A DNA stretch of 64,000 nucleotides from Escherichia coli (GTDB lineage Bacteria > Pseudomonadota > Gammaproteobacteria > Enterobacterales > Enterobacteriaceae), in the NCBI RefSeq assembly GCF_044324785.1, contig NZ_CP172127.1, one strand, 5' to 3'. Below, piece by piece: positions 19,589 to 58,514 of this stretch. Below the pieces are notes generated by a model, which did not search any database, was not told where the DNA came from, and saw only the letters and a list, made by a program, of their open reading frames with translations. Position 1 is the stretch's first letter. The number at the start of each line of letters is the position of its first letter. The position numbers and the translations under genes were made by a program.

Positions 19589-20449
19589 ATGACTTCATCT
19601 CTGCCCTGTGGGCAAACGTCTTTATTGTTACAGATGACCGAGCGCCTGGCGCTTTCCGACGCGCATTTTCGGCGGATAAGTCAATTGATCTATCAACGAG
19701 CCGGGATCGTCCTGGCCGACCATAAACGCGACATGGTTTACAACCGACTGGTTCGTCGTTTGCGTTCGCTGGGACTGACGGATTTCGGCCATTACTTGAA
19801 CTTGCTGGAATCTAATCAGCACAGCGGTGAGTGGCAGGCGTTTATCAATTCGCTGACCACGAATCTGACGGCTTTTTTCCGTGAGGCGCATCATTTTCCT
19901 CTGCTCGCGGATCACGCCCGGCGTCGTTCTGGCGAGTATCGCGTATGGAGCGCGGCGGCTTCGACCGGCGAAGAGCCGTACAGCATTGCGATGACGCTGG
20001 CTGACACATTGGGCACCGCGCCCGGACGCTGGAAAGTGTTTGCCAGCGACATTGACACCGAAGTGCTGGAAAAAGCCAGAAGCGGTATTTATCGCCATGA
20101 AGAGCTGAAAAATCTGACGCCGCAGCAACTGCAGCGGTACTTCATGCGAGGGACGGGACCGCATCAAGGGCTGGTACGCGTGCGTCAGGAATTGGCGAAT
20201 TATGTTGATTTTGCCCCGCTGAATTTACTGGCGAAACAGTACACCGTGCCGGGGCCGTTTGATGCGATCTTCTGTCGTAACGTCATGATCTACTTCGATC
20301 AAACTACCCAGCAGGAGATTTTGCGCCGCTTTGTTCCGCTCCTTAAACCCGACGGATTGCTGTTTGCGGGTCACTCTGAAAACTTTAGCCACCTTGAGCG
20401 CCGCTTCACGCTGCGTGGTCAGACGGTGTATGCGCTAAGTAAGGATTAA
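19589..20449 (+). CDS. cheR: Chemotaxis protein methyltransferase CheR
   Basis: ORF track 286 aa. Confidence 0.95.
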
Positions 20450-20451
20450 CG

Positions 20452-21905
<1,454 letters not shown>

Positions 21906-21915
21906 GGATGCGACT

Positions 21916-22560
21916 ATGATGCAACCATCAATCAAACCTGCTGACGAGCATTCAGCTGGCGATATCATTGCGCGCATCGGCAGCCTGACGCGTATGCTGC
22001 GCGACAGTTTGCGGGAGCTGGGGCTGGATCAGGCCATTGCCGAAGCGGCGGAAGCCATCCCCGATGCGCGCGATCGTTTGTACTATGTTGTGCAGATGAC
22101 CGCCCAGGCTGCGGAGCGGGCGCTGAACAGTGTTGAGGCGTCACAACCGCATCAGGATCAAATGGAGAAATCAGCAAAAGCGTTAACCCAACGTTGGGAT
22201 GACTGGTTTGCCGATCCGATTGACCTTGCCGACGCCCGTGAACTGGTAACAGATACGCGGCAATTTCTGGCAGATGTACCCGCACATACCAGCTTTACTA
22301 ACGCGCAACTGCTGGAAATCATGATGGCGCAGGATTTTCAGGATCTCACCGGGCAGGTTATTAAGCGGATGATGGATGTCATTCAGGAGATCGAACGTCA
22401 GTTGCTGATGGTGCTGTTGGAAAACATCCCGGAACAGGAGTCGCGTCCAAAACGTGAAAACCAGAGTTTGCTTAATGGACCTCAGGTCGATACCAGCAAA
22501 GCCGGTGTGGTAGCCAGTCAGGATCAGGTGGACGATTTGTTGGATAGTCTTGGATTTTGA
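21916..22560 (+). CDS. cheZ: CheY-P phosphatase CheZ
   Basis: ORF track 21886..22560 (TTG-initiated frame); ATG at 21916 gives [10 protein letters not shown] (214 aa). Confidence 0.93.
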
Positions 22561-22568
22561 TTTGTATT

Positions 22569-22633
22569 GCCTGATGTGGCGTGACTACGTCATATCAGGC
22601 GGTCGGATAACGCGATGACGCCGCATCCGACAA
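22569..22633. repeat. REP/BIME element (two REP-like palindromic units) between cheZ and flhB
   Basis: gcctgatgtggcgtgactacgtcatatcaggc followed by ggtcggataacgcgatgacgccgcatccgacaa, resembling the enterobacterial REP consensus. Confidence 0.6.
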
Positions 22634-22761
22634 ACGCACATTATGCTTGATGTGTGGCAGCAAAAGCCCTAAATCCCGCCTGTTTTGCCTCTTACTCAAA
22701 CCATTGAACGCTTTGCGCTCTGGCATCATTTACGCTTAATACTCTTTCCAGGATTGGCGAC

Positions 22762-23910
22762 GTGTCTGACGAGAGCGACGACAAAACAGAAGCCCCCACA
22801 CCTCACCGACTAGAAAAAGCGCGGGAAGAGGGGCAAATCCCGCGTTCTCGTGAACTGACTTCACTGCTGATTTTGGTGGTGGGCGTTAGTGTTATCTGGT
22901 TTGGCGGTGTGTCGCTGGCCCGTCGATTGTCGGGCATGCTCTCCGCTGGGCTGCATTTTGATCACAGTATTATCAATGACCCAAATCTGATCCTCGGGCA
23001 GATTATTCTGCTGATCAGAGAAGCCATGCTGGCGCTGCTGCCACTGATTAGCGGCGTGGTGCTGGTGGCGCTCATTTCTCCGGTCATGCTGGGAGGGCTG
23101 GTATTTAGCGGCAAATCCTTGCAGCCGAAGTTTTCCAAACTCAACCCGCTACCGGGCATTAAACGGATGTTCTCGGCACAGACTGGCGCGGAGTTGCTTA
23201 AGGCAATTTTGAAAACCATCCTGGTTGGCAGCGTGACGGGATTTTTTCTCTGGCATCACTGGCCGCAGATGATGCGCTTAATGGCCGAGTCTCCGATTAC
23301 CGCCATGGGTAATGCGATGGATCTGGTAGGGCTATGCGCGCTGCTGGTGGTACTTGGTGTTATTCCGATGGTGGGATTTGACGTCTTTTTCCAAATCTTC
23401 AGCCACCTGAAAAAGCTGCGAATGTCGCGGCAGGATATTCGTGATGAGTTCAAACAAAGCGAAGGCGATCCTCATGTTAAAGGGCGGATCCGTCAGATGC
23501 AGCGAGCTGCCGCGCGGCGTCGGATGATGGCCGATGTGCCGAAAGCGGATGTCATTGTCAATAACCCGACCCACTATTCGGTAGCGTTGCAGTATGACGA
23601 AAACAAAATGAGCGCACCGAAAGTGGTCGCTAAAGGTGCAGGGCTGGTCGCGCTGCGCATTCGTGAAATTGGCGCTGAAAATAACGTCCCTACGCTTGAA
23701 GCGCCGCCGCTGGCGCGAGCGCTGTATCGACATGCGGAGATCGGTCAACAAATCCCGGGTCAACTGTACGCCGCGGTGGCGGAAGTGCTGGCCTGGGTCT
23801 GGCAACTGAAACGCTGGCGTCTGGCTGGTGGACAGCGCCCTGTACAACCTACTCATCTTCCGGTGCCGGAAGCCCTGGATTTTATTAACGAGAAACCGAC
23901 CCATGAGTAA
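22762..23910 (+). CDS. flhB: Flagellar export apparatus protein FlhB
   Basis: ORF track 382 aa (GTG start), conserved NPTH autocleavage motif present. Confidence 0.95.
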   Translation: MSDESDDKTEAPTPHRLEKAREEGQIPRSRELTSLLILVVGVSVIWFGGVSLARRLSGMLSAGLHFDHSIINDPNLILGQIILLIREAMLALLPLISGVVLVALISPVMLGGLVFSGKSLQPKFSKLNPLPGIKRMFSAQTGAELLKAILKTILVGSVTGFFLWHHWPQMMRLMAESPITAMGNAMDLVGLCALLVVLGVIPMVGFDVFFQIFSHLKKLRMSRQDIRDEFKQSEGDPHVKGRIRQMQRAAARRRMMADVPKADVIVNNPTHYSVALQYDENKMSAPKVVAKGAGLVALRIREIGAENNVPTLEAPPLARALYRHAEIGQQIPGQLYAAVAEVLAWVWQLKRWRLAGGQRPVQPTHLPVPEALDFINEKPTHE

Positions 23911-25981
23911 TCTGGCCGCGATGCTGCGCCTGCCTGCAAACCTGAAATCGACACAATGGCAGATCCTTGCCGGACCGATTTTGATCCTGCTGATCTTGTC
24001 GATGATGGTGCTGCCACTGCCCGCATTCATACTCGACCTGCTGTTTACCTTCAATATTGCCTTGTCGATCATGGTGTTGCTGGTGGCGATGTTTACCCAG
24101 CGCACGCTTGAGTTTGCTGCGTTTCCGACCATTCTGTTGTTTACCACGCTGTTGCGTCTGGCACTTAACGTGGCTTCAACCCGTATCATTTTGATGGAAG
24201 GGCATACCGGCGCGGCGGCGGCTGGGAAGGTGGTCGAAGCGTTCGGTCACTTCCTCGTTGGTGGCAATTTTGCTATCGGTATCGTGGTGTTCGTCATTCT
24301 CGTGATCATCAACTTTATGGTTATCACCAAAGGTGCCGGGCGTATTGCGGAAGTGGGCGCGCGCTTTGTTCTCGATGGTATGCCGGGTAAGCAGATGGCG
24401 ATTGACGCCGACCTTAACGCCGGATTGATTGGTGAAGATGAGGCGAAAAAACGCCGCTCCGAAGTGACTCAGGAAGCCGATTTTTACGGCTCAATGGACG
24501 GGGCAAGTAAATTTGTTCGCGGCGATGCCATCGCCGGGATCCTCATCATGGTCATTAACGTTGTCGGCGGGTTGCTGGTCGGCGTGCTGCAACATGGCAT
24601 GAGCATGGGACACGCCGCGGAAAGTTATACGCTATTGACCATTGGCGACGGTCTGGTGGCACAAATCCCGGCGCTGGTGATTTCTACCGCCGCGGGGGTC
24701 ATCGTTACGCGTGTCAGCACCGATCAGGATGTTGGCGAGCAGATGGTGAATCAGCTTTTCAGTAACCCGAGCGTTATGTTGTTAAGTGCCGCCGTGCTCG
24801 GTTTACTCGGCCTGGTGCCTGGAATGCCGAACCTGGTATTTTTGCTGTTCACTGCCGGATTGCTGGGGCTGGCCTGGTGGATCCGCGGACGCGAACAAAA
24901 AGCGCCTGCCGAACCAAAACCGGTAAAAATGGCAGAGAATAATGCCGTTGTCGAAGCGACGTGGAACGATGTACAACTGGAAGATTCTCTGGGAATGGAA
25001 GTGGGTTATCGACTGATCCCGATGGTCGATTTCCAGCAGGATGGTGAGTTGCTGGGCCGTATACGCAGTATTCGCAAGAAATTTGCCCAGGAGATGGGGT
25101 TTCTGCCGCCGGTGGTGCACATTCGCGACAATATGGATCTGCAACCTGCCCGCTATCGCATTTTGATGAAAGGCGTGGAGATAGGCAGTGGTGATGCTTA
25201 TCCGGGGCGTTGGTTGGCGATTAACCCTGGTACCGCTGCCGGGACGTTACCTGGTGAGGCGACCGTCGATCCGGCATTTGGCCTGAATGCTATCTGGATT
25301 GAAAGTGCGCTTAAAGAACAGGCGCAGATTCAGGGGTACACCGTGGTTGAGGCCAGCACGGTGGTGGCAACGCATCTTAACCACCTCATTAGCCAGCATG
25401 CCGCAGAGCTGTTTGGTCGTCAGGAGGCGCAACAGCTGTTGGATCGCGTCGCCCAAGAGATGCCAAAGCTGACGGAAGATCTCGTTCCTGGCGTCGTCAC
25501 GCTCACCACACTGCATAAAGTGCTGCAAAATCTGCTCGATGAAAAAGTACCGATTCGCGATATGCGCACCATTCTCGAAACGCTGGCGGAACATGCGCCC
25601 ATCCAAAGCGATCCACATGAATTAACCGCCGTCGTGCGCGTGGCGTTGGGACGGGCGATTACCCAGCAGTGGTTTCCTGGCAAAGATGAAGTTCATGTTA
25701 TTGGCCTCGATACACCGCTGGAACGTTTGTTGCTACAGGCGTTGCAGGGCGGGGGCGGACTGGAGCCAGGGCTGGCGGATCGTTTACTGGCGCAAACTCA
25801 GGAAGCGCTATCCCGTCAGGAGATGTTGGGTGCGCCGCCAGTTTTATTGGTGAACCACGCGCTGCGACCATTATTGTCTCGCTTCCTGCGCCGCAGCCTG
25901 CCGCAGTTAGTGGTGCTGTCGAATCTGGAACTGTCTGATAACCGACATATCCGCATGACGGCGACAATTGGCGGTAAATGA
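23903..25981 (+). CDS. flhA: Flagellar export apparatus protein FlhA
   Basis: ORF track 23828..25981; start MSNLAAMLRLP at 23903 (692 aa); overlaps flhB by 8 nt. Confidence 0.95.
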   Translation: MSNLAAMLRLPANLKSTQWQILAGPILILLILSMMVLPLPAFILDLLFTFNIALSIMVLLVAMFTQRTLEFAAFPTILLFTTLLRLALNVASTRIILMEGHTGAAAAGKVVEAFGHFLVGGNFAIGIVVFVILVIINFMVITKGAGRIAEVGARFVLDGMPGKQMAIDADLNAGLIGEDEAKKRRSEVTQEADFYGSMDGASKFVRGDAIAGILIMVINVVGGLLVGVLQHGMSMGHAAESYTLLTIGDGLVAQIPALVISTAAGVIVTRVSTDQDVGEQMVNQLFSNPSVMLLSAAVLGLLGLVPGMPNLVFLLFTAGLLGLAWWIRGREQKAPAEPKPVKMAENNAVVEATWNDVQLEDSLGMEVGYRLIPMVDFQQDGELLGRIRSIRKKFAQEMGFLPPVVHIRDNMDLQPARYRILMKGVEIGSGDAYPGRWLAINPGTAAGTLPGEATVDPAFGLNAIWIESALKEQAQIQGYTVVEASTVVATHLNHLISQHAAELFGRQEAQQLLDRVAQEMPKLTEDLVPGVVTLTTLHKVLQNLLDEKVPIRDMRTILETLAEHAPIQSDPHELTAVVRVALGRAITQQWFPGKDEVHVIGLDTPLERLLLQALQGGGGLEPGLADRLLAQTQEALSRQEMLGAPPVLLVNHALRPLLSRFLRRSLPQLVVLSNLELSDNRHIRMTATIGGK

Positions 25982-26373
25982 TGAGAACCTTATTAGCAAT
26001 ATTATTGTTTCCGCTGCTGGTGCAAGCCGCCGGGGAGGGGATGTGGCAGGCAAGTAGTGTCGGAATTACGCTAAATCACCGTGGTGAGTCGATGTCGTCA
26101 GCGCCTCTTTCTACTCGACAACCTGCTGCAGGATTGATGACGCTGGTGGCGTGGCGTTATCAGCTTATCGGCCCGACACCTGCAGGACTGCGGGTTCGCT
26201 TGTGTTCACAATCTCGTTGTGTCGAATTAGATGGGCAGAGCGGAACCACCGTGGCCTTTTCCGGTATAGCGGCAGCAGAACCGTTGCGCTTTATCTGGGA
26301 AGTGCCTGGCGGTGGGCGGTTAATTCCGCCGCTAAAGGTACAACGTAATGAAGTGATTGTGAATTATCGTTAA
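25981..26373 (+). CDS. flhE: Flagellar protein FlhE
   Basis: ORF track 25978..26373; signal peptide; start overlaps flhA stop. Confidence 0.9.
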   Translation: MRTLLAILLFPLLVQAAGEGMWQASSVGITLNHRGESMSSAPLSTRQPAAGLMTLVAWRYQLIGPTPAGLRVRLCSQSRCVELDGQSGTTVAFSGIAAAEPLRFIWEVPGGGRLIPPLKVQRNEVIVNYR

Positions 26374-26376
26374 TGA

Positions 26377-26412
26377 TAAAAAAGCCGATGTCTGCCATGA
26401 CATCGGCTTTTG
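26377..26412. terminator. Bidirectional rho-independent terminator between convergent flhE and argS
   Basis: A-tract, stem gccgatgtc / gacatcggc, T-tract. Confidence 0.75.
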
Positions 26413-26425
26413 CCGTATAACGCGA

Positions 26426-28159
26426 TTACATACGCTCTACTGTCTCAATACCCAGCGTATCCAGACCCAGTTTCAGCGTCTTCGCCGTCAGTTGTGCCAG
26501 TTTCAGACGGCTGTTACGCACTTCTTCGTTTTCTGCGCTGAGGATCGGGCAGTGCTCGTAGAAACCAGAGAACAGACCGGCCAGATCGTACAGGTAAGCA
26601 CACATTACATGCGGCGTGCCTTCACGGGCAACCACGGTGAGGGTTTCTTCAAACTGCAGCAGGCGAGCTGCCAGTTGCGCTTCACGATCTTCACGGATGA
26701 TAACCGGAGCTGCAGCCAGTTGCTCTTCGTCAATTTCTGCTTTACGGAACACGGACAATACACGCGTGTAAGCATACTGCATGTATGGCGCGGTATTACC
26801 CTCAAACGCCAGCATGTTGTCCCAGTCGAAGATGTAGTCGGTAGTGCGGTTTTTGGAGAGATCTGCATATTTCACCGCACCAATACCAACCGCGTTAGCC
26901 AGTTTTTCCAGCTCGTCGGCTGGCATGTCCGGGTTTTTCTCTGCCACCAGACGGCGTGCGCGTTCCAGGGCTTCATCCAGCAGATCGGCCAGTTTCACCG
27001 TACCGCCAGCACGGGTTTTGAACGGTTTGCCGTCTTTACCCAGCATCATGCCGAACATGTGGTGTTCCAGCGGTACGGATTCCGGTACATAGCCTGCTTT
27101 GCGGACGATAGCCCACGCCTGCATCAGGTGTTGATGCTGACGGGAGTCGATGTAATACAGCACGCGATCGGCATGCAGTGTTTCATAACGATATTTCGCA
27201 CAGGCGATATCAGTGGTGGTGTAGAGATAGCCGCCATCTTTCTTCTGAATGATCACGCCCATCGGTTCGCCTTCCTTGTTTTTGAACTCATCAAGGAATA
27301 CGACGGTCGCGCCTTCGCTTTCTACTGCGAGACCTTTGGCTTTGAGATCTGCCACGATACCCGGCAGCATCGGGTTATAGAGGCTTTCGCCCATCACGTC
27401 ATCACGGGTCAGAGTCACGTTGAGACGATCGTAGGTGATCTGGTTCTGCGTCATGGTGATGTCGACCAGTTTGCGCCACATCTCGCGGAAATATTCGTCA
27501 CCGCTTTGCAGTTTTACCACGTAGTTACGTGCGCGCTCGGCGAACTCTTCATCTTCATCGTAATGCTTTTTCGCATCGCGGTAGAAACCTTCAAGGTCAG
27601 CCAGCTCCATTTCACCGGCGTTTTCCTGCTGCTGCTTTTCCAGCCATGCAATCAGCATACCGAACTGAGTGCCCCAGTCGCCGACGTGGTTTGCGCGAAT
27701 CACTTTGTGACCGAGGAACTCCAGAGTACGCACTGCTGCGTCACCAATAATGGTAGAGCGCAGGTGACCAACGTGCATCTCTTTCGCCACGTTTGGCGCA
27801 GAGTAGTCAACCACAATGGTCTGTTTTTCCGGCGTAGCAACACCGAGACGATCGGACGCCAGCGCCTGCTGAACATGTTCAGCCAGGAATGCCGGATCAA
27901 GGAAAATGTTGATAAAGCCAGGACCGGCGATCTCAACTTTGCTGGCGATACCGTTAAGATCCAGATGAGTCAGCACCTGCTCTGCTAATTGTCGCGGTGC
28001 CATACCCAGTTTTTTAGCAACTGCCATCATGCCGTTAGCCTGATAGTCGCCGAACTGAACTTTTGCTGACTGACGAACCTGCGGTTCGCAATCCGCAGGC
28101 GCGCCTGCCGCAATCATGGCCTGACGGACTTTTTCTGAGAGAAGAGCCTGAATATTCAC
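26426..28159 (-). CDS. argS: Arginine--tRNA ligase ArgS
   Basis: ORF track 577 aa; class I aaRS HIGH-type motif HVGH present. Confidence 0.97.
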
Positions 28160-28374
28160 CGGAATACCTTACATTGATGAAGCGAGCAAAAATTACCCGC
28201 ACCAGTTAAAGAAATTAGGGCGGGAGTATACTGCAAATGGCTGTTTTCGTCAGCAACGTGCGCGTGGCGTATTGCCGTTTTCACTATTGCATCAGAAGCG
28301 GCGTGAAATCAGCGGTTGGTTGGCGCAGGGCAACAGGGTAAATTAACGCTTTTACTGAAAGACGAAGAGTGATT

Positions 28375-28941
28375 ATGGCGAACTGGCAATCTATCGACGA
28401 GCTGCAGGATATTGCATCGGATTTACTGCGATTTACCCACGCATTAGATGAACTTTCCCGCCGTCTGGGGTTGGATATCACTCCGCTGACTGCCGATCAC
28501 ATTTCTTTGCGTTGCCATCAAAACGCCACTGCTGAGCGCTGGCGTCGCGGGTTTGAACAGTGCGGCGAGCTTTTGTCAGAAAATATGATCAATGGCAGGC
28601 CGATTTGTCTGTTTAAATTGCATGAACCGGTACAGGTTGCGCACTGGCAGTTTTCCATTGTGGAGCTACCGTGGCCCGGGGAAAAACGTTACCCGCACGA
28701 AGGTTGGGAACATATTGAAATCGTTCTGCCGGGTGATCCAGAAACGCTGAATGCCCGTGCGCTGGCATTGCTTTCTGATGAAGGACTCAGCCTGCCGGGG
28801 ATCTCAGTTAAAACCAGTTCGCCAAAAGGTGAGCATGAGCGATTACCGAATCCGACGCTGGCGGTCACCGATGGCAAAACGACCATTAAATTTCATCCGT
28901 GGTCCATTGAAGAGATCGTTGCCAGCGAGCAGTCGGCGTAA
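28375..28941 (+). CDS. yecM: VOC/glyoxalase-like protein YecM
   Basis: ORF track 28369..28941; start MANWQSIDE (188 aa). Confidence 0.88.
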   Translation: MANWQSIDELQDIASDLLRFTHALDELSRRLGLDITPLTADHISLRCHQNATAERWRRGFEQCGELLSENMINGRPICLFKLHEPVQVAHWQFSIVELPWPGEKRYPHEGWEHIEIVLPGDPETLNARALALLSDEGLSLPGISVKTSSPKGEHERLPNPTLAVTDGKTTIKFHPWSIEEIVASEQSA

Positions 28942-28945
28942 TTAA

Positions 28946-29701
<756 letters not shown>

Positions 29702-29747
29702 TTTTTACCGTTGCATCATGTCGCCCAATATGATGCTTGCTCGTACC

Positions 29748-29781
29748 AGGCCCCTGCAATTTCAACAGGGGCCTTTTTTTA
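29748..29781 (+). terminator. Rho-independent terminator after cutC
   Basis: Stem aggcccctg / caggggcct followed by TTTTTTT. Confidence 0.8.
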
Positions 29782-30086
29782 TCCCCGAGAAGTATAAAAA
29801 ACGAACGATTTCCGTGATCAGTTGAGCGCGTGACAGTGCGCATAGCGTTGTGCTAAAAATTTTTATATATTCATATTAATTATGTAATTTAAATTACTAA
29901 AACTGACAAATATATATTCTAAATAACAACTGGGTTATTCCTTAGCAATTAATGATTACATTGTAATAAATCATATTCTTTATCGATTATTTCAGGCAGT
30001 GTTGTGCCGAATTATGCAAGCGGTCAATTCGTTGTATATTTAATTATACAATGATTTCGGTGTTCTGGAATTAATTAGAGGAATCT

Positions 30087-31187
30087 ATGCGAGGGAAAAA
30101 ACGCATTGGGTTATTGTTTTTGCTGATAACGGTTGTGGTTGGTGGCGGCGGGTTATTACTGGCGCAAAAAGCCTTACATAAAACGTCGGATACCGCATTT
30201 TGCCTTTCCTGCCACTCGATGAGTAAACCTTTTGAGGAATATCAGGGAACTGTCCACTTTTCTAACCAGAAAGGGATACGTGCGGAATGTGCCGATTGCC
30301 ATATTCCAAAGTCAGGGATGGATTATTTATTTGCTAAATTAAAAGCTTCTAAAGATATTTATCATGAATTTGTTAGCGGCAAAATAGACAGTGACGATAA
30401 GTTCGAAGCGCATCGTCAGGAAATGGCCGAAACAGTATGGAAAGAATTAAAAGCAACTGATTCTGCAACGTGTCGTAGTTGCCATTCTTTTGATGCCATG
30501 GATATTGCCTCGCAAAGTGAATCTGCGCAGAAAATGCATAACAAAGCGCAAAAGGACGGCGAAACCTGTATCGATTGTCATAAAGGCATTGCCCATTTTC
30601 CACCAGAAATAAAAATGGATGACAACGCGGCGCATGAGCTGGAAAGTCAGGCCGCTACTTCAGTTACCAATGGCGCACATATTTATCCTTTCAAACCTTC
30701 TCGTATAGGCGAACTGGCTACCGTGAATCCTGGTACCGATCTCACCGTCGTTGATACCAGTGGCAAACAGCCGATCGTTTTGTTGCAGGGTTATCAAATG
30801 CAGGGCAGTGAAAACACGCTCTACCTGGCGGCAGGTCAACGGCTGGCGCTAGCCACATTAAGTGAAGAAGGTATCAAGGCGCTGACGGTAAACGGGGAAT
30901 GGCAGGCTGACGAGTACGGCAATCAATGGCGTCAGGCGTCTTTACAGGGTGTGCTTACCGATCCCGCATTAGCGGACCGTAAACCGCTATGGCAATACGC
31001 TGAAAAACTTGACGATACCTATTGCGCTGGTTGCCATGCGCCTATTGCCGCCGACCATTACACCGTCAATGCTTGGCCGTCCATTGCCAAAGGTATGGGT
31101 GCGCGAACCAGCATGAGCGAAAACGAACTGGACATTTTGACGCGGTACTTCCAGTACAACGCCAAAGATATTACCGAGAAACAGTGA
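30087..31187 (+). CDS. torY: Pentaheme c-type cytochrome TorY (NapC/NirT family)
   Basis: ORF track 366 aa; multiple CxxCH heme-binding motifs. Confidence 0.93.
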
Positions 31188-31211
31188 TCCTCGTTGATCA
31201 GGGAGGAAGTT

Positions 31212-33641
31212 ATGACATTAACAAGACGTGAATTTATTAAACACAGCGGTATTGCCGCTGGGGCGCTGGTGGTGACATCGGCTGCACCGCTACCCGCATG
31301 GGCAGAAGAGAAGGGTGGCAAAATCCTCACCGCGGGCCGTTGGGGAGCGATGAACGTAGAAGTGAAGGACGGCAAGATTGTTTCTTCGACAGGCGCGCTG
31401 GCGAAAACCATACCGAACTCCTTACAGTCTACGGCGGCGGATCAGGTACACACCACGGCGCGTATTCAGCATCCGATGGTGAGAAAAAGCTATCTCGATA
31501 ATCCACTGCAACCAGCGAAAGGTCGTGGCGAAGATACCTATGTACAGGTGAGCTGGGAACACGTATTAAAACTGATTCATGAGCAACACGATCGTATTCG
31601 TAAAGCTAACGGACCATCGGCCATTTTTGCCGGATCTTACGGCTGGCGATCTTCTGGCGTGTTGCATAAAGCGCAAACCTTACTGCAACGTTATATGAAC
31701 CTAGCGGGCGGTTATTCCGGGCATAGCGGCGATTATTCAACCGGGGCGGCACAGGTGATCATGCCGCATGTGGTCGGTTCTGTAGAGGTGTATGAACAGC
31801 AGACCTCCTGGCCGCTGATTCTGGAAAACAGCCAGGTTGTGGTGCTGTGGGGGATGAACCCGCTGAATACCTTAAAAATTGCCTGGAGCAGTACCGATGA
31901 GCAAGGGCTGGAATACTTCCATCAGCTGAAAAAATCTGGCAAACCAGTGATTGCCATTGATCCTATCCGCTCCGAAACCATCGAATTCTTTGGCGATAAT
32001 GCCACCTGGATCGCGCCGAATATGGGCACCGACGTGGCTCTGATGTTAGGTATCGCGCATACCCTGATGACACAAAGCAAACACGATAAAGTGTTCCTTG
32101 AAAAATACACCACCGGGTATCCGCAGTTTGAAGAGTATCTGACAGGTAAGAGCGATAATACGCCGAAGAGCGCGGCCTGGGCGGCGGAAATTACTGGCAT
32201 ACCGGAAGCGCAGATAGTCAAACTCGCTGAACTGATGGCGGCAAATCGCACAATGCTGATGGCAGGCTGGGGAATTCAGCGCCAGCAATATGGTGAACAG
32301 AAACACTGGATGCTGGTGACGCTGGCGGCGATGTTAGGGCAGATTGGTACACCGGGCGGCGGTTTTGGTTTCTCTTATCATTACTCCAACGGTGGCAACC
32401 CGACGCGTGTTGGCGGCGTGCTGCCGGAAATGTCTGCGGCGATTGCCGGACAGGCCAGCGAGGCCGCTGATGATGGCGGAATGACGGCGATTCCTGTTGC
32501 CCGTATCGTTGATGCGCTGGAAAATCCTGGCGGCAAATATCAGCATAACGGTAAAGAACAAACGTATCCGAATATCAAAATGATCTGGTGGGCGGGTGGC
32601 GGTAACTTTACCCATCACCAGGATACTAATCGTCTGATCAAAGCATGGCAGAAACCGGAGATGATCGTCGTTTCTGAATGCTACTGGACCGCAGCTGCTA
32701 AACATGCAGATATCGTATTACCGATCACCACATCGTTTGAGCGCAATGACTTGACGATGACCGGTGATTACAGCAACCAGCATATTGTGCCGATGAAGCA
32801 GGCTGTTGCTCCGCAATTTGAAGCGCGAAACGATTTTGATGTGTTTGCCGATCTTGCGGAATTACTCAAACCTGGCGGAAAAGAGATCTATACCGAAGGT
32901 AAAGATGAAATGGCGTGGCTGAAATTTTTCTATGATGCCGCTCAGAAAGGTGCCCGTGCGCAACGCGTCACTATGCCAATGTTTAATGCCTTCTGGCAGC
33001 AAAATAAACTGATCGAAATGCGCCGCAGCGAGAAGAACGAACAGTACGTTCGTTATGGTGATTTCCGCGCCGATCCGGTGAAAAATGCGCTGGGTACGCC
33101 AAGCGGCAAAATTGAGATTTACTCCAAAACGCTGGAAAAATTTGGCTATAAGGATTGCCCGGCACACCCAACCTGGCTTGCGCCTGATGAGTGGAAAGGT
33201 TCCGCCGACGAGAAGCAGTTGCAGCTTCTGACCGCACATCCGGCACACCGTTTACACAGTCAGCTTAACTATGCGGAACTGCGTAAAAAATATGCGGTTG
33301 CCGATCGTGAACCGATCACTATTCACACCGAAGATGCTGCTCGCTTTGGTATTGCGAATGGCGATCTGGTGCGTGTCTGGAACAAACGTGGTCAGATTCT
33401 GACAGGCGCGGTGGTGACTGACGGGATCAAAAAAGGCGTGGTATGCGTGCATGAAGGTGCATGGCCAGATCTGGAAAATGGCTTGTGTAAAAACGGCAGT
33501 GCGAACGTGTTAACGGCGGATATCCCCAGCTCTCAGCTGGCAAATGCCTGTGCCGGTAACTCTGCGCTGGTGTATATCGAAAAATATACGGGCAATGCAC
33601 CGAAGTTAACGGCGTTTGATCAGCCAGCTGTTCAGGCATAA
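31212..33641 (+). CDS. torZ: Trimethylamine-N-oxide reductase 2, molybdoenzyme TorZ (Tat signal)
   Basis: ORF track 31194..33641; start [10 protein letters not shown] at 31212 (809 aa) with twin-arginine motif. Confidence 0.93.
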
Positions 33642-33692
33642 GACGTGAAAAGCGCCCGGAAACGGGCGCTGAGGTTATGCAAACGTAAAACT

Positions 33693-33791
33693 GCCTGATG
33701 CGCTATGCTTATAAGGCCTACATAGTCCCTGCAATATATTGAATTAGCAAGATTTTGTAGGCCGGATAAGGCGTTCACGCCGCATCCGGCA
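33693..33791. repeat. REP/BIME element between convergent torZ and cmoB
   Basis: gtaggccggataaggcgttcacgccgcatccggca is a near-consensus REP; a second degenerate unit lies upstream. Confidence 0.7.
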
Positions 33792-33805
33792 GTAATACCA
33801 GACCT

Positions 33806-35953
<2,148 letters not shown>

Positions 35954-43873: not shown

Positions 43874-44004
43874 GTCGGATTGGTCGCTCGCGGTGCATCC
43901 GACACTGGCAGTGTTGCCTGATGCGCCGCTATTCGCGTCTTATCAGGCATATACCAGAGATAGCGAACCATAGGTCGGATAAGGCGCTCGCGCCGCATCC
44001 GACA
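43874..44004. repeat. BIME cluster of three REP-like palindromic units between ruvB and znuB
   Basis: gtcggattggtcgctcgcggtgcatccgaca / gcctgatgcgccgctattcgcgtcttatcaggc / gtcggataaggcgctcgcgccgcatccgaca. Confidence 0.7.
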
Positions 44005-49090: not shown

Positions 49091-49125
49091 GTAGGCCGGA
49101 TGAGGCGTTTTCGCCGCATCCGGCA
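49091..49125. repeat. REP element between convergent lpxM and pykA
   Basis: gtaggccggatgaggcgttttcgccgcatccggca, near-consensus REP. Confidence 0.7.
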
Positions 49126-58188: not shown

Positions 58189-58514
58189 TGGCCTCTGATA
58201 ATTCGATTGACCGTCGGCGGATGCGGCGCGAGTGCCTGGTCCGCCCTACAAGGCACCTCAATCGGAGGCCTGAGAAGACGCAACAGCGTCGCATCGGGCA
58301 ATCAGCATCAAACAATGCCACTCAAAACGTCAAATTACTTTCACCTAAAATACCCTTATCACCTGATATACAGTGAACACCTTACCTGGCGCGAATTTCT
58401 TTGAATAACGGCCTGCCGACCCGCTTATTTGCGCATCTTTTGTCTCGATATACATTTTCTGACATCCTCATCCGCTATGCTACAGGCACTAAAAATGGTT
58501 ATTGAGGAGCAAAT

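Follow-up and report, generated by a model that had tools for sequence, protein, structure and literature searches.

In Escherichia coli K-12 MG1655 the genes argS and flhE are separated by two others (argS, yecV, yecT, flhE; b1876-b4778-b1877-b1878), and 784 bp lie between the argS and flhE stop codons. The product of yecV, which is encoded on the strand opposite to argS, has only 14 aa, and that of yecT has 162 aa and corresponds to the Pfam family LprI. Expression of yecT responds to BglJ-RcsB, which activates it, and to H-NS/StpA, which partly repress it (PMC3950696). DUF1311/LprI proteins have been published as immunity proteins of type VI secretion systems (T6SS) (PMC12135965; Etsi4 in PMC12981562). 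As for convergent E. coli genes in general, bidirectional termination has been reported to be widespread among them and to be aided by head-on collisions (bioRxiv 10.1101/2022.10.23.513370). In the literature we found no paper discussing a presence/absence polymorphism of yecT.

We analysed the corresponding junction in a stretch of 64,000 nucleotides of an E. coli genome (contig NZ_CP172127.1), which as a whole is referred to as the window. Here the gene order is flhB, flhA and flhE on the plus strand, argS on the minus strand, and then yecM and cutC on the plus strand. In other words, flhE and argS are convergent transcription units, and their stop codons lie 52 bp apart. The features of the junction, with the evidence for each, are as follows.

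25978..26373, plus strand: flhE, the last gene of flhBAE (ORF list, translation, Pfam, RefSeq annotation of matching genomes)
26374..26425, unstranded: intergenic spacer between the convergent stop codons, yecT-less allele, exactly 52 bp (sequence)
26378..26383, unstranded: A6 tract, read as U6 on the argS transcript directly 3' of the hairpin (sequence)
26384..26407, unstranded: hairpin (folds on both strands)
26384-26392, unstranded: left stem GCCGATGTC (sequence)
26393-26398, unstranded: loop TGCCAT (sequence)
26399-26407, unstranded: right stem GACATCGGC (sequence)
26408..26411, plus strand: T4 tract, a short U-tract for the transcript in the flhE direction (sequence)
26426..28159, minus strand: argS (ORF list, translation, RefSeq annotation)

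The flhE product matches Pfam PF06366 (1.8e-41); its RefSeq-style start is at 25981 and the gene ends with ...AAT TAT CGT TAA, the TAA stop codon occupying 26371-26373. The argS gene has a GTG start and encodes arginine--tRNA ligase of 577 aa, with a TAA stop codon at 26426-26428 on the minus strand. Two ORFs that overlap the spacer, 26291..26398 (minus strand) and 26410..26541 (plus strand), were discarded as mechanical calls lying mostly within flhE or antisense to argS. A sequence-only reading of the window had claimed a gap of 52 bp with one hairpin common to both genes, an apparent absence of yecT, and the presence of yecT between argS and flhE in K-12. The gap follows directly from the ORF coordinates (26374..26425) and the single hairpin from folding either strand. 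The statement on K-12 was also right: alignment with K-12 gives a spacing of 784 bp, not 52 bp, and the interval there holds yecT together with yecV, which that reading did not mention.

The whole element, A6-GCCGATGTC-TGCCAT-GACATCGGC-T4, spans 26378-26411. Its stem consists of 9 bp, six of them G-C pairs, and reaches 13 bp with the A:U extension; the loop has 6 nt. The free energy is about -25 to -26 kcal/mol on either strand (z = -4.3 to -4.6; 0/200 shuffles as stable), and in the argS direction it amounts to -26.2 kcal/mol (z -4.26, none of 200 shuffles equally stable). Across seven Escherichia sequences (the window, four other E. coli, E. albertii and the divergent locus L002) the stem and the A6 tract are invariant and the loop is variable; since the stem never varies in these seven, it receives no support from covariation. 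A scan of 25500-30500 against Rfam (E <= 1) matched no family at the junction. The same scan gave a sub-threshold match to SgrS at 27400-27499, with 16 bits where the gathering score is 37. It also gave a full-length match to the MicL sRNA (RF02654, 368 bits) at 29473-29780, inside the 3' part of cutC, which is its known location. A REP/BIME origin of the hairpin was considered and rejected, as the REP consensus GCCKGATGCGRCGY does not occur at 26374-26425 and the hairpin sequence is single-copy within the 64-kb window. Elsewhere in the window the REP-like consensus has nine matches in five places, lying in several intergenic gaps (22569-22631, 33777-33790, 43916-44003, 49095-49124 and 58216-58299).

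Nucleotide identity between the window and K-12 is 98.2% for argS and 96.2% for flhE, and in the pairwise alignment homology does not go beyond the flhE stop codon on one side, and on the other it runs out 3 nt after that of argS. Neither tblastn with YecT and YecV nor blastn with the 784-bp K-12 interval returned more than chance-level matches over the whole 64-kb window, which confirms that yecT is absent here, without a remnant of the interval. A deletion scar built from the left and right ends of the K-12 interval was likewise not found at the window junction. The stem of the window hairpin differs from both hairpins of K-12. At the equivalent position the K-12 argS terminator reads GCCTGATC-loop-GATCAGGC followed by U6, where the window has GCCGATGTC, and the two argS terminators share only the motif ATAAAAAAGCC. 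In K-12 yecV terminates inside the argS terminator (...AAT AAA AAA GCC TGA), and yecT ends at a separate long hairpin followed by U5. This hairpin, located in the yecT-flhE spacer, reads as the yecT terminator and has a perfect 15-bp stem in Escherichia sp. E1V33. Judged by the alignment, then, the difference between the window and K-12 is a replacement of the whole interval, including the argS terminator hairpin, and not a clean indel. We also considered whether an insertion might have split the hairpin, as AAAAAGGCTCGATGTCT in the K-12 yecT-flhE spacer resembles the left arm of the window hairpin. This idea was rejected: other species with yecT read CATGTTTTGTTGCAA there, within the perfect stem of the yecT terminator, so the K-12 resemblance is a derived state that arose by chance.

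To see how common each arrangement is, we turned to the complete genomes of E. coli, 5,426 in number. Contiguous matches to a 141-bp probe spanning the short junction were found in 1,783 of them (about 33%), and the 784-bp K-12-type interval was matched in 3,642 (about 67%). Together the two alleles account for 5,425 of the 5,426 genomes, and the junction is therefore a two-allele polymorphism of E. coli, specific neither to one strain nor to K-12. The strain-specific indel proposed by the sequence-only reading is contradicted by these counts, as well as by the occurrence of both alleles in other Escherichia species. All five short-allele genomes that we inspected (CU37RT-2, FDAARGOS_1257, 7/2, ECA64 and N3) have the identical 52-bp spacing in their RefSeq annotation. 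The short allele is carried, among others, by ATCC 11775 and PCN033, which we take to belong to phylogroups B2 and D, respectively. Genomes with yecT include K-12, BL21 and HS derivatives (presumably phylogroup A), O104:H4, O103:H2 and O111:H8 (presumably B1), and O157:H7 and O55:H7 (presumably E). This spread, with groups assigned by strain name rather than from a tree, fits one gain basal to the A/B1/E crown group. In a few per cent of the complete genomes the probe is matched on its argS side only, without a flhE match there (for example in H39, H40 and H70), which is consistent with the reported deletions of the flagellar region around yecT-flhD (bioRxiv 10.1101/2025.03.19.644130). As to the source of the window, none of the 5,426 genomes exceeds 98.7% identity to its positions 20000-34000, over 14 kb; this value belongs to N3, and PCN033 reaches 98.3%. 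On this segment alone, the window seems to come from a lineage without a close finished relative. With this 14-kb segment as query, the median number of matched places was 33 per genome, probably owing to the REPs that the window contains.

The wider family offers a different picture of the same interval. Searching species-representative genomes with FlhE yielded 80 loci, in a set that by name did not include E. fergusonii, E. marmotae and E. ruysiae. E. albertii (L005) and L002 have a short junction of 55 bp with the stem as in the window, and E. whittamii (L004) and Escherichia sp. E1V33 (L003) have yecT between flhE and argS, at 96-98% amino acid identity. In at least 69 of the 80 species (L006-L081) the interval is occupied by a gene for an MFS_2 transporter and/or a GH88 gene, mostly by both, and sometimes by a PBP2-like gene as well; this PBP2-like transpeptidase gene follows MFS_2/GH88 in 15 loci. 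Four Enterobacter/Lelliottia species have a short junction with an unrelated hairpin, and yecT adjoining flhE was not found in any of the 76 sampled non-Escherichia species of Enterobacteriaceae. In most genera the end of argS is marked by AAACCCGGC-nnnn-GCCGGGTTT, which has A and T runs at its sides and faces a convergent gene; this makes one hairpin between argS and its convergent neighbour the normal layout. An attempt to polarise the two Escherichia alleles by the terminator sequences of other genera failed, as most of these use the unrelated AAACCCGGC-nnnn-GCCGGGTTT. Judged by gene content, the argS-flhE interval behaves as a variable cargo slot across Enterobacteriaceae. Compared with the family at large, both Escherichia alleles, the short junction included, are derived.

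Two observations on these loci are worth adding. Locus L002 (NZ_JAATUR010000018.1) is labelled Escherichia coli strain SCPM-O-B-8794, and its flhA, flhE and argS are 89-93% identical in nucleotide sequence to those of K-12 and of the window. Being as distant as other Escherichia species, L002 probably falls outside E. coli sensu stricto. The 3' end of flhE also varies. In the window (26368-26376) and the four other E. coli short alleles it reads CGT TAA TGA, in E. albertii CGG CAG TGA and in L002 CGC CAA TGA. A C-to-T change thus leaves FlhE of the E. coli short allele one residue shorter (...NYR* instead of ...NYRQ*). FlhE of K-12 and of Enterobacter ends with ...YR*, encoded by CGC TGA.

Based on these data, we propose that the short junction would be the ancestral state of Escherichia, retained by the lineage of the window. 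A cassette with yecT most likely arrived later, inserted between the flhE stop codon and the argS terminator or replacing what lay there, and would then have spread among Escherichia lineages via homologous recombination through the conserved flanking genes. We put the probability of this reading as a whole, which combines an old short allele, an argS terminator and a later cassette spread by recombination, at about 80%. That the cassette was gained on the K-12 side, and not lost in the lineage of the window, is the favoured polarity, in which we have good though somewhat lesser confidence. The sequence-only reading had named an acquisition by K-12 and a loss here as alternatives. Acquisition, which is not specific to K-12, is probably the right one of the two.

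The competing explanations differ greatly in plausibility. That the 52-bp spacing is an assembly or sequence artefact, with the region collapsed or deleted in one sequence, has nothing in its favour and is virtually impossible. The contiguous junction is shared by 1,783 independently finished genomes, with the identical spacing in the five inspected, and the artefact reading is refuted by them. A more substantial alternative is that yecT and yecV were present in the Escherichia ancestor and were deleted in the short-junction lineages, including that of the window. It draws on the fact that E. whittamii, Escherichia sp. E1V33 and 67% of E. coli genomes all have yecT in one place, between argS and flhE, and an older gain followed by several losses is possible on these grounds. 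Moreover, yecT is evidently dispensable and decays: the K-12-like E. coli GCA_020669275.1 (L088 3825-4601) carries it with a 7-bp frameshift deletion, partial forms occur in Shigella flexneri (P0003-P0008, P0021-P0023), and strain N25 (H83) has an IS1 insertion in the argS-flhE interval. The interval is also prone to deletion, as is seen in the four Enterobacter/Lelliottia species, where the MFS_2-GH88 pair is lost and the argS terminator alone is kept. Nonetheless, we consider such a loss unlikely. The short allele retains nothing of the cassette and has a hairpin of its own. As judged by its distribution, this allele is old and common, being one of two in E. coli and occurring also in E. albertii and the divergent L002, where the amount of change in the loops and unconstrained flanks is roughly what distinct species should show. 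The cassette, on the other hand, is AT-rich (GC content of 38-40.5% against 51-58% in the flanks), is partly under H-NS/StpA repression and lacks close relatives outside Escherichia; among the 5.8 billion proteins of a database, the YecT relatives next after the Escherichia/Shigella cluster have only about 60% identity. Between species, the cassette is two to three times less diverged at synonymous sites than the flanking genes. Specifically, third-codon identity of yecT between K-12 and the two other Escherichia species (L003 and L004) is 93.9% and 92.0%, and that of argS and flhA in the same species pairs is about 81% (Fisher p = 2e-5 and 3e-4), a difference to which slower neutral substitution in AT-rich DNA could contribute. 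Within E. coli (K-12 compared with O157) divergence of the cassette is not below that of its flanks. The history of the cassette thus appears decoupled from that of its flanks, which suits transfer after speciation by homologous recombination. Finally, loss would require at least two or three independent precise events, or else one loss followed by the spread of the short allele. We note that truncated YecT-like proteins of 108-110 aa with about 83% identity at first suggested deeply diverged yecT alleles, and with them a long residence in Escherichia. This was rejected, as the one context that was fetched (L088) is the frameshifted gene of the K-12-like E. coli just mentioned.

A separate question is what the hairpin does in each direction. 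In the argS direction it lies 18 nt beyond the stop codon of the gene, and directly 3' of the stem on the minus strand comes UUUUUUAUCA, a U-tract that is invariant in the seven Escherichia sequences; a terminator scan, which demands at least 5 T in 8, returns a minus-strand call at 26411..26380. By these sequence features the hairpin is a canonical intrinsic (Rho-independent) terminator, predicted to end transcription of argS. The sequence-only reading had called it bidirectional, and this appears only partly supported, since in the flhE direction there are just four U's and their tract is not conserved: the argS side of the claim, with its U6, is supported, and the flhE side does not reach the same standard. 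It might then be argued that the hairpin acts one way, as the argS terminator only, and that flhBAE transcripts are ended by Rho, by polymerase collision or by low read-through antisense to argS. The minus-strand reading alone passes the scan rule, as the T4 tract on the flhE side falls short of it and is followed by GCCG. This tract also varies by lineage (TTTT in the window, TGTT in B2-type E. coli, CTTT in L002) next to an invariant A6. K-12 likewise has no canonical terminator in the flhE direction after flhE, in its yecT-flhE spacer (L001 3455-3590). Against a purely one-way role, the fold on the flhE strand is also very stable and starts 10 nt past the flhE stop codon. Hairpins with short or imperfect U-tracts still pause RNA polymerase and partly terminate it. 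The symmetry of A-tract, hairpin and T-tract at the argS end is the rule across the family, and bidirectional termination has been reported as widespread at convergent pairs (bioRxiv 10.1101/2022.10.23.513370). A strictly one-way hairpin is in our opinion a real possibility, if not the one we would choose. We favour a hairpin that in the flhE direction probably serves as a weaker terminator or a pause site, with termination of flhBAE possibly helped, as we infer, by head-on collisions with polymerases coming from argS.

Some homologues of YecT hint at what it may do. Full-length YecT homologues of about 60% identity are found in two T6SS clusters (L089 5001-5486 and L090 5573-6058), in both cases directly upstream of a PAAR gene. 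In L090 a VgrG-linked protein with a pesticin-like lysozyme domain is encoded a few genes upstream of the homologue, and in L089 a CHAP-domain protein is. The module of L090 that holds the homologue has a GC content of 36-44% and the surrounding cluster of about 52-63% (L090 was the one cluster profiled). The context of a third homologue is not T6SS. A PDB sequence search with YecT gave no match. Of the four matches to yecT on plasmids none is informative: three are E. coli copies of near-identical sequence, of which at least two lie on megabase-sized records deposited as plasmids, and the fourth is a 5-kb Klebsiella oxytoca record with 100% identity. It is tempting to speculate that the argS-flhE gap is a cargo slot serviced by recombination and that yecT is an orphan T6SS immunity gene against a peptidoglycan-hydrolase effector, for example one of the pesticin-type lysozyme-like kind. 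We regard this combined proposal as rather doubtful. If it were true, the 33%/67% split would represent an immunity polymorphism against interbacterial attack, and the lineage of the window, like B2-type strains, would lack the protection of yecT, with a bearing on strain-to-strain competition.

In itself, the short junction is an ordinary and correctly annotated allele, which can be read from public annotation, namely in over 1,000 RefSeq genomes; its element is, by all its sequence features, an ordinary intrinsic terminator in a common convergent-gene layout. Its use may lie elsewhere. The short and the yecT alleles provide a clean two-allele marker, which appears to separate B2-/D-type from A/B1/E lineages. 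They also form a natural pair of constructs for comparing the transcript ends of flhBAE and argS with and without the shared hairpin.

How the junction relates to known systems can be put as follows. With REP/BIME elements it has in common a palindrome in a short gap between convergent genes, but these are multi-copy sequences with a consensus, whereas the junction hairpin lacks the consensus and occurs once in the window. The K-12 interval has the same convergent flanking genes and an argS terminator at the equivalent position with the common motif ATAAAAAAGCC, yet it measures 784 bp instead of 52 bp and contains yecV, yecT, the yecT terminator and a different argS stem. The flhE-MFS_2-GH88-(PBP2 paralogue)-argS arrangement of most Enterobacteriaceae is similar in its anchor genes and in an argS hairpin shared with the convergent gene. 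It differs in its 3-5 kb of cargo, made up of a sugar transporter, a family 88 glycosyl hydrolase and sometimes a PBP2-like transpeptidase; Escherichia, without this cargo, has the short junction or yecT only. Set against bidirectional terminators between convergent genes, the two sides of the element are unequal, with U6 for argS and U4 for flhE, the latter not conserved. Otherwise the layout is the same: a GC-rich stem set between an A-tract and a T-tract, placed 10 and 18 nt from the two stop codons.
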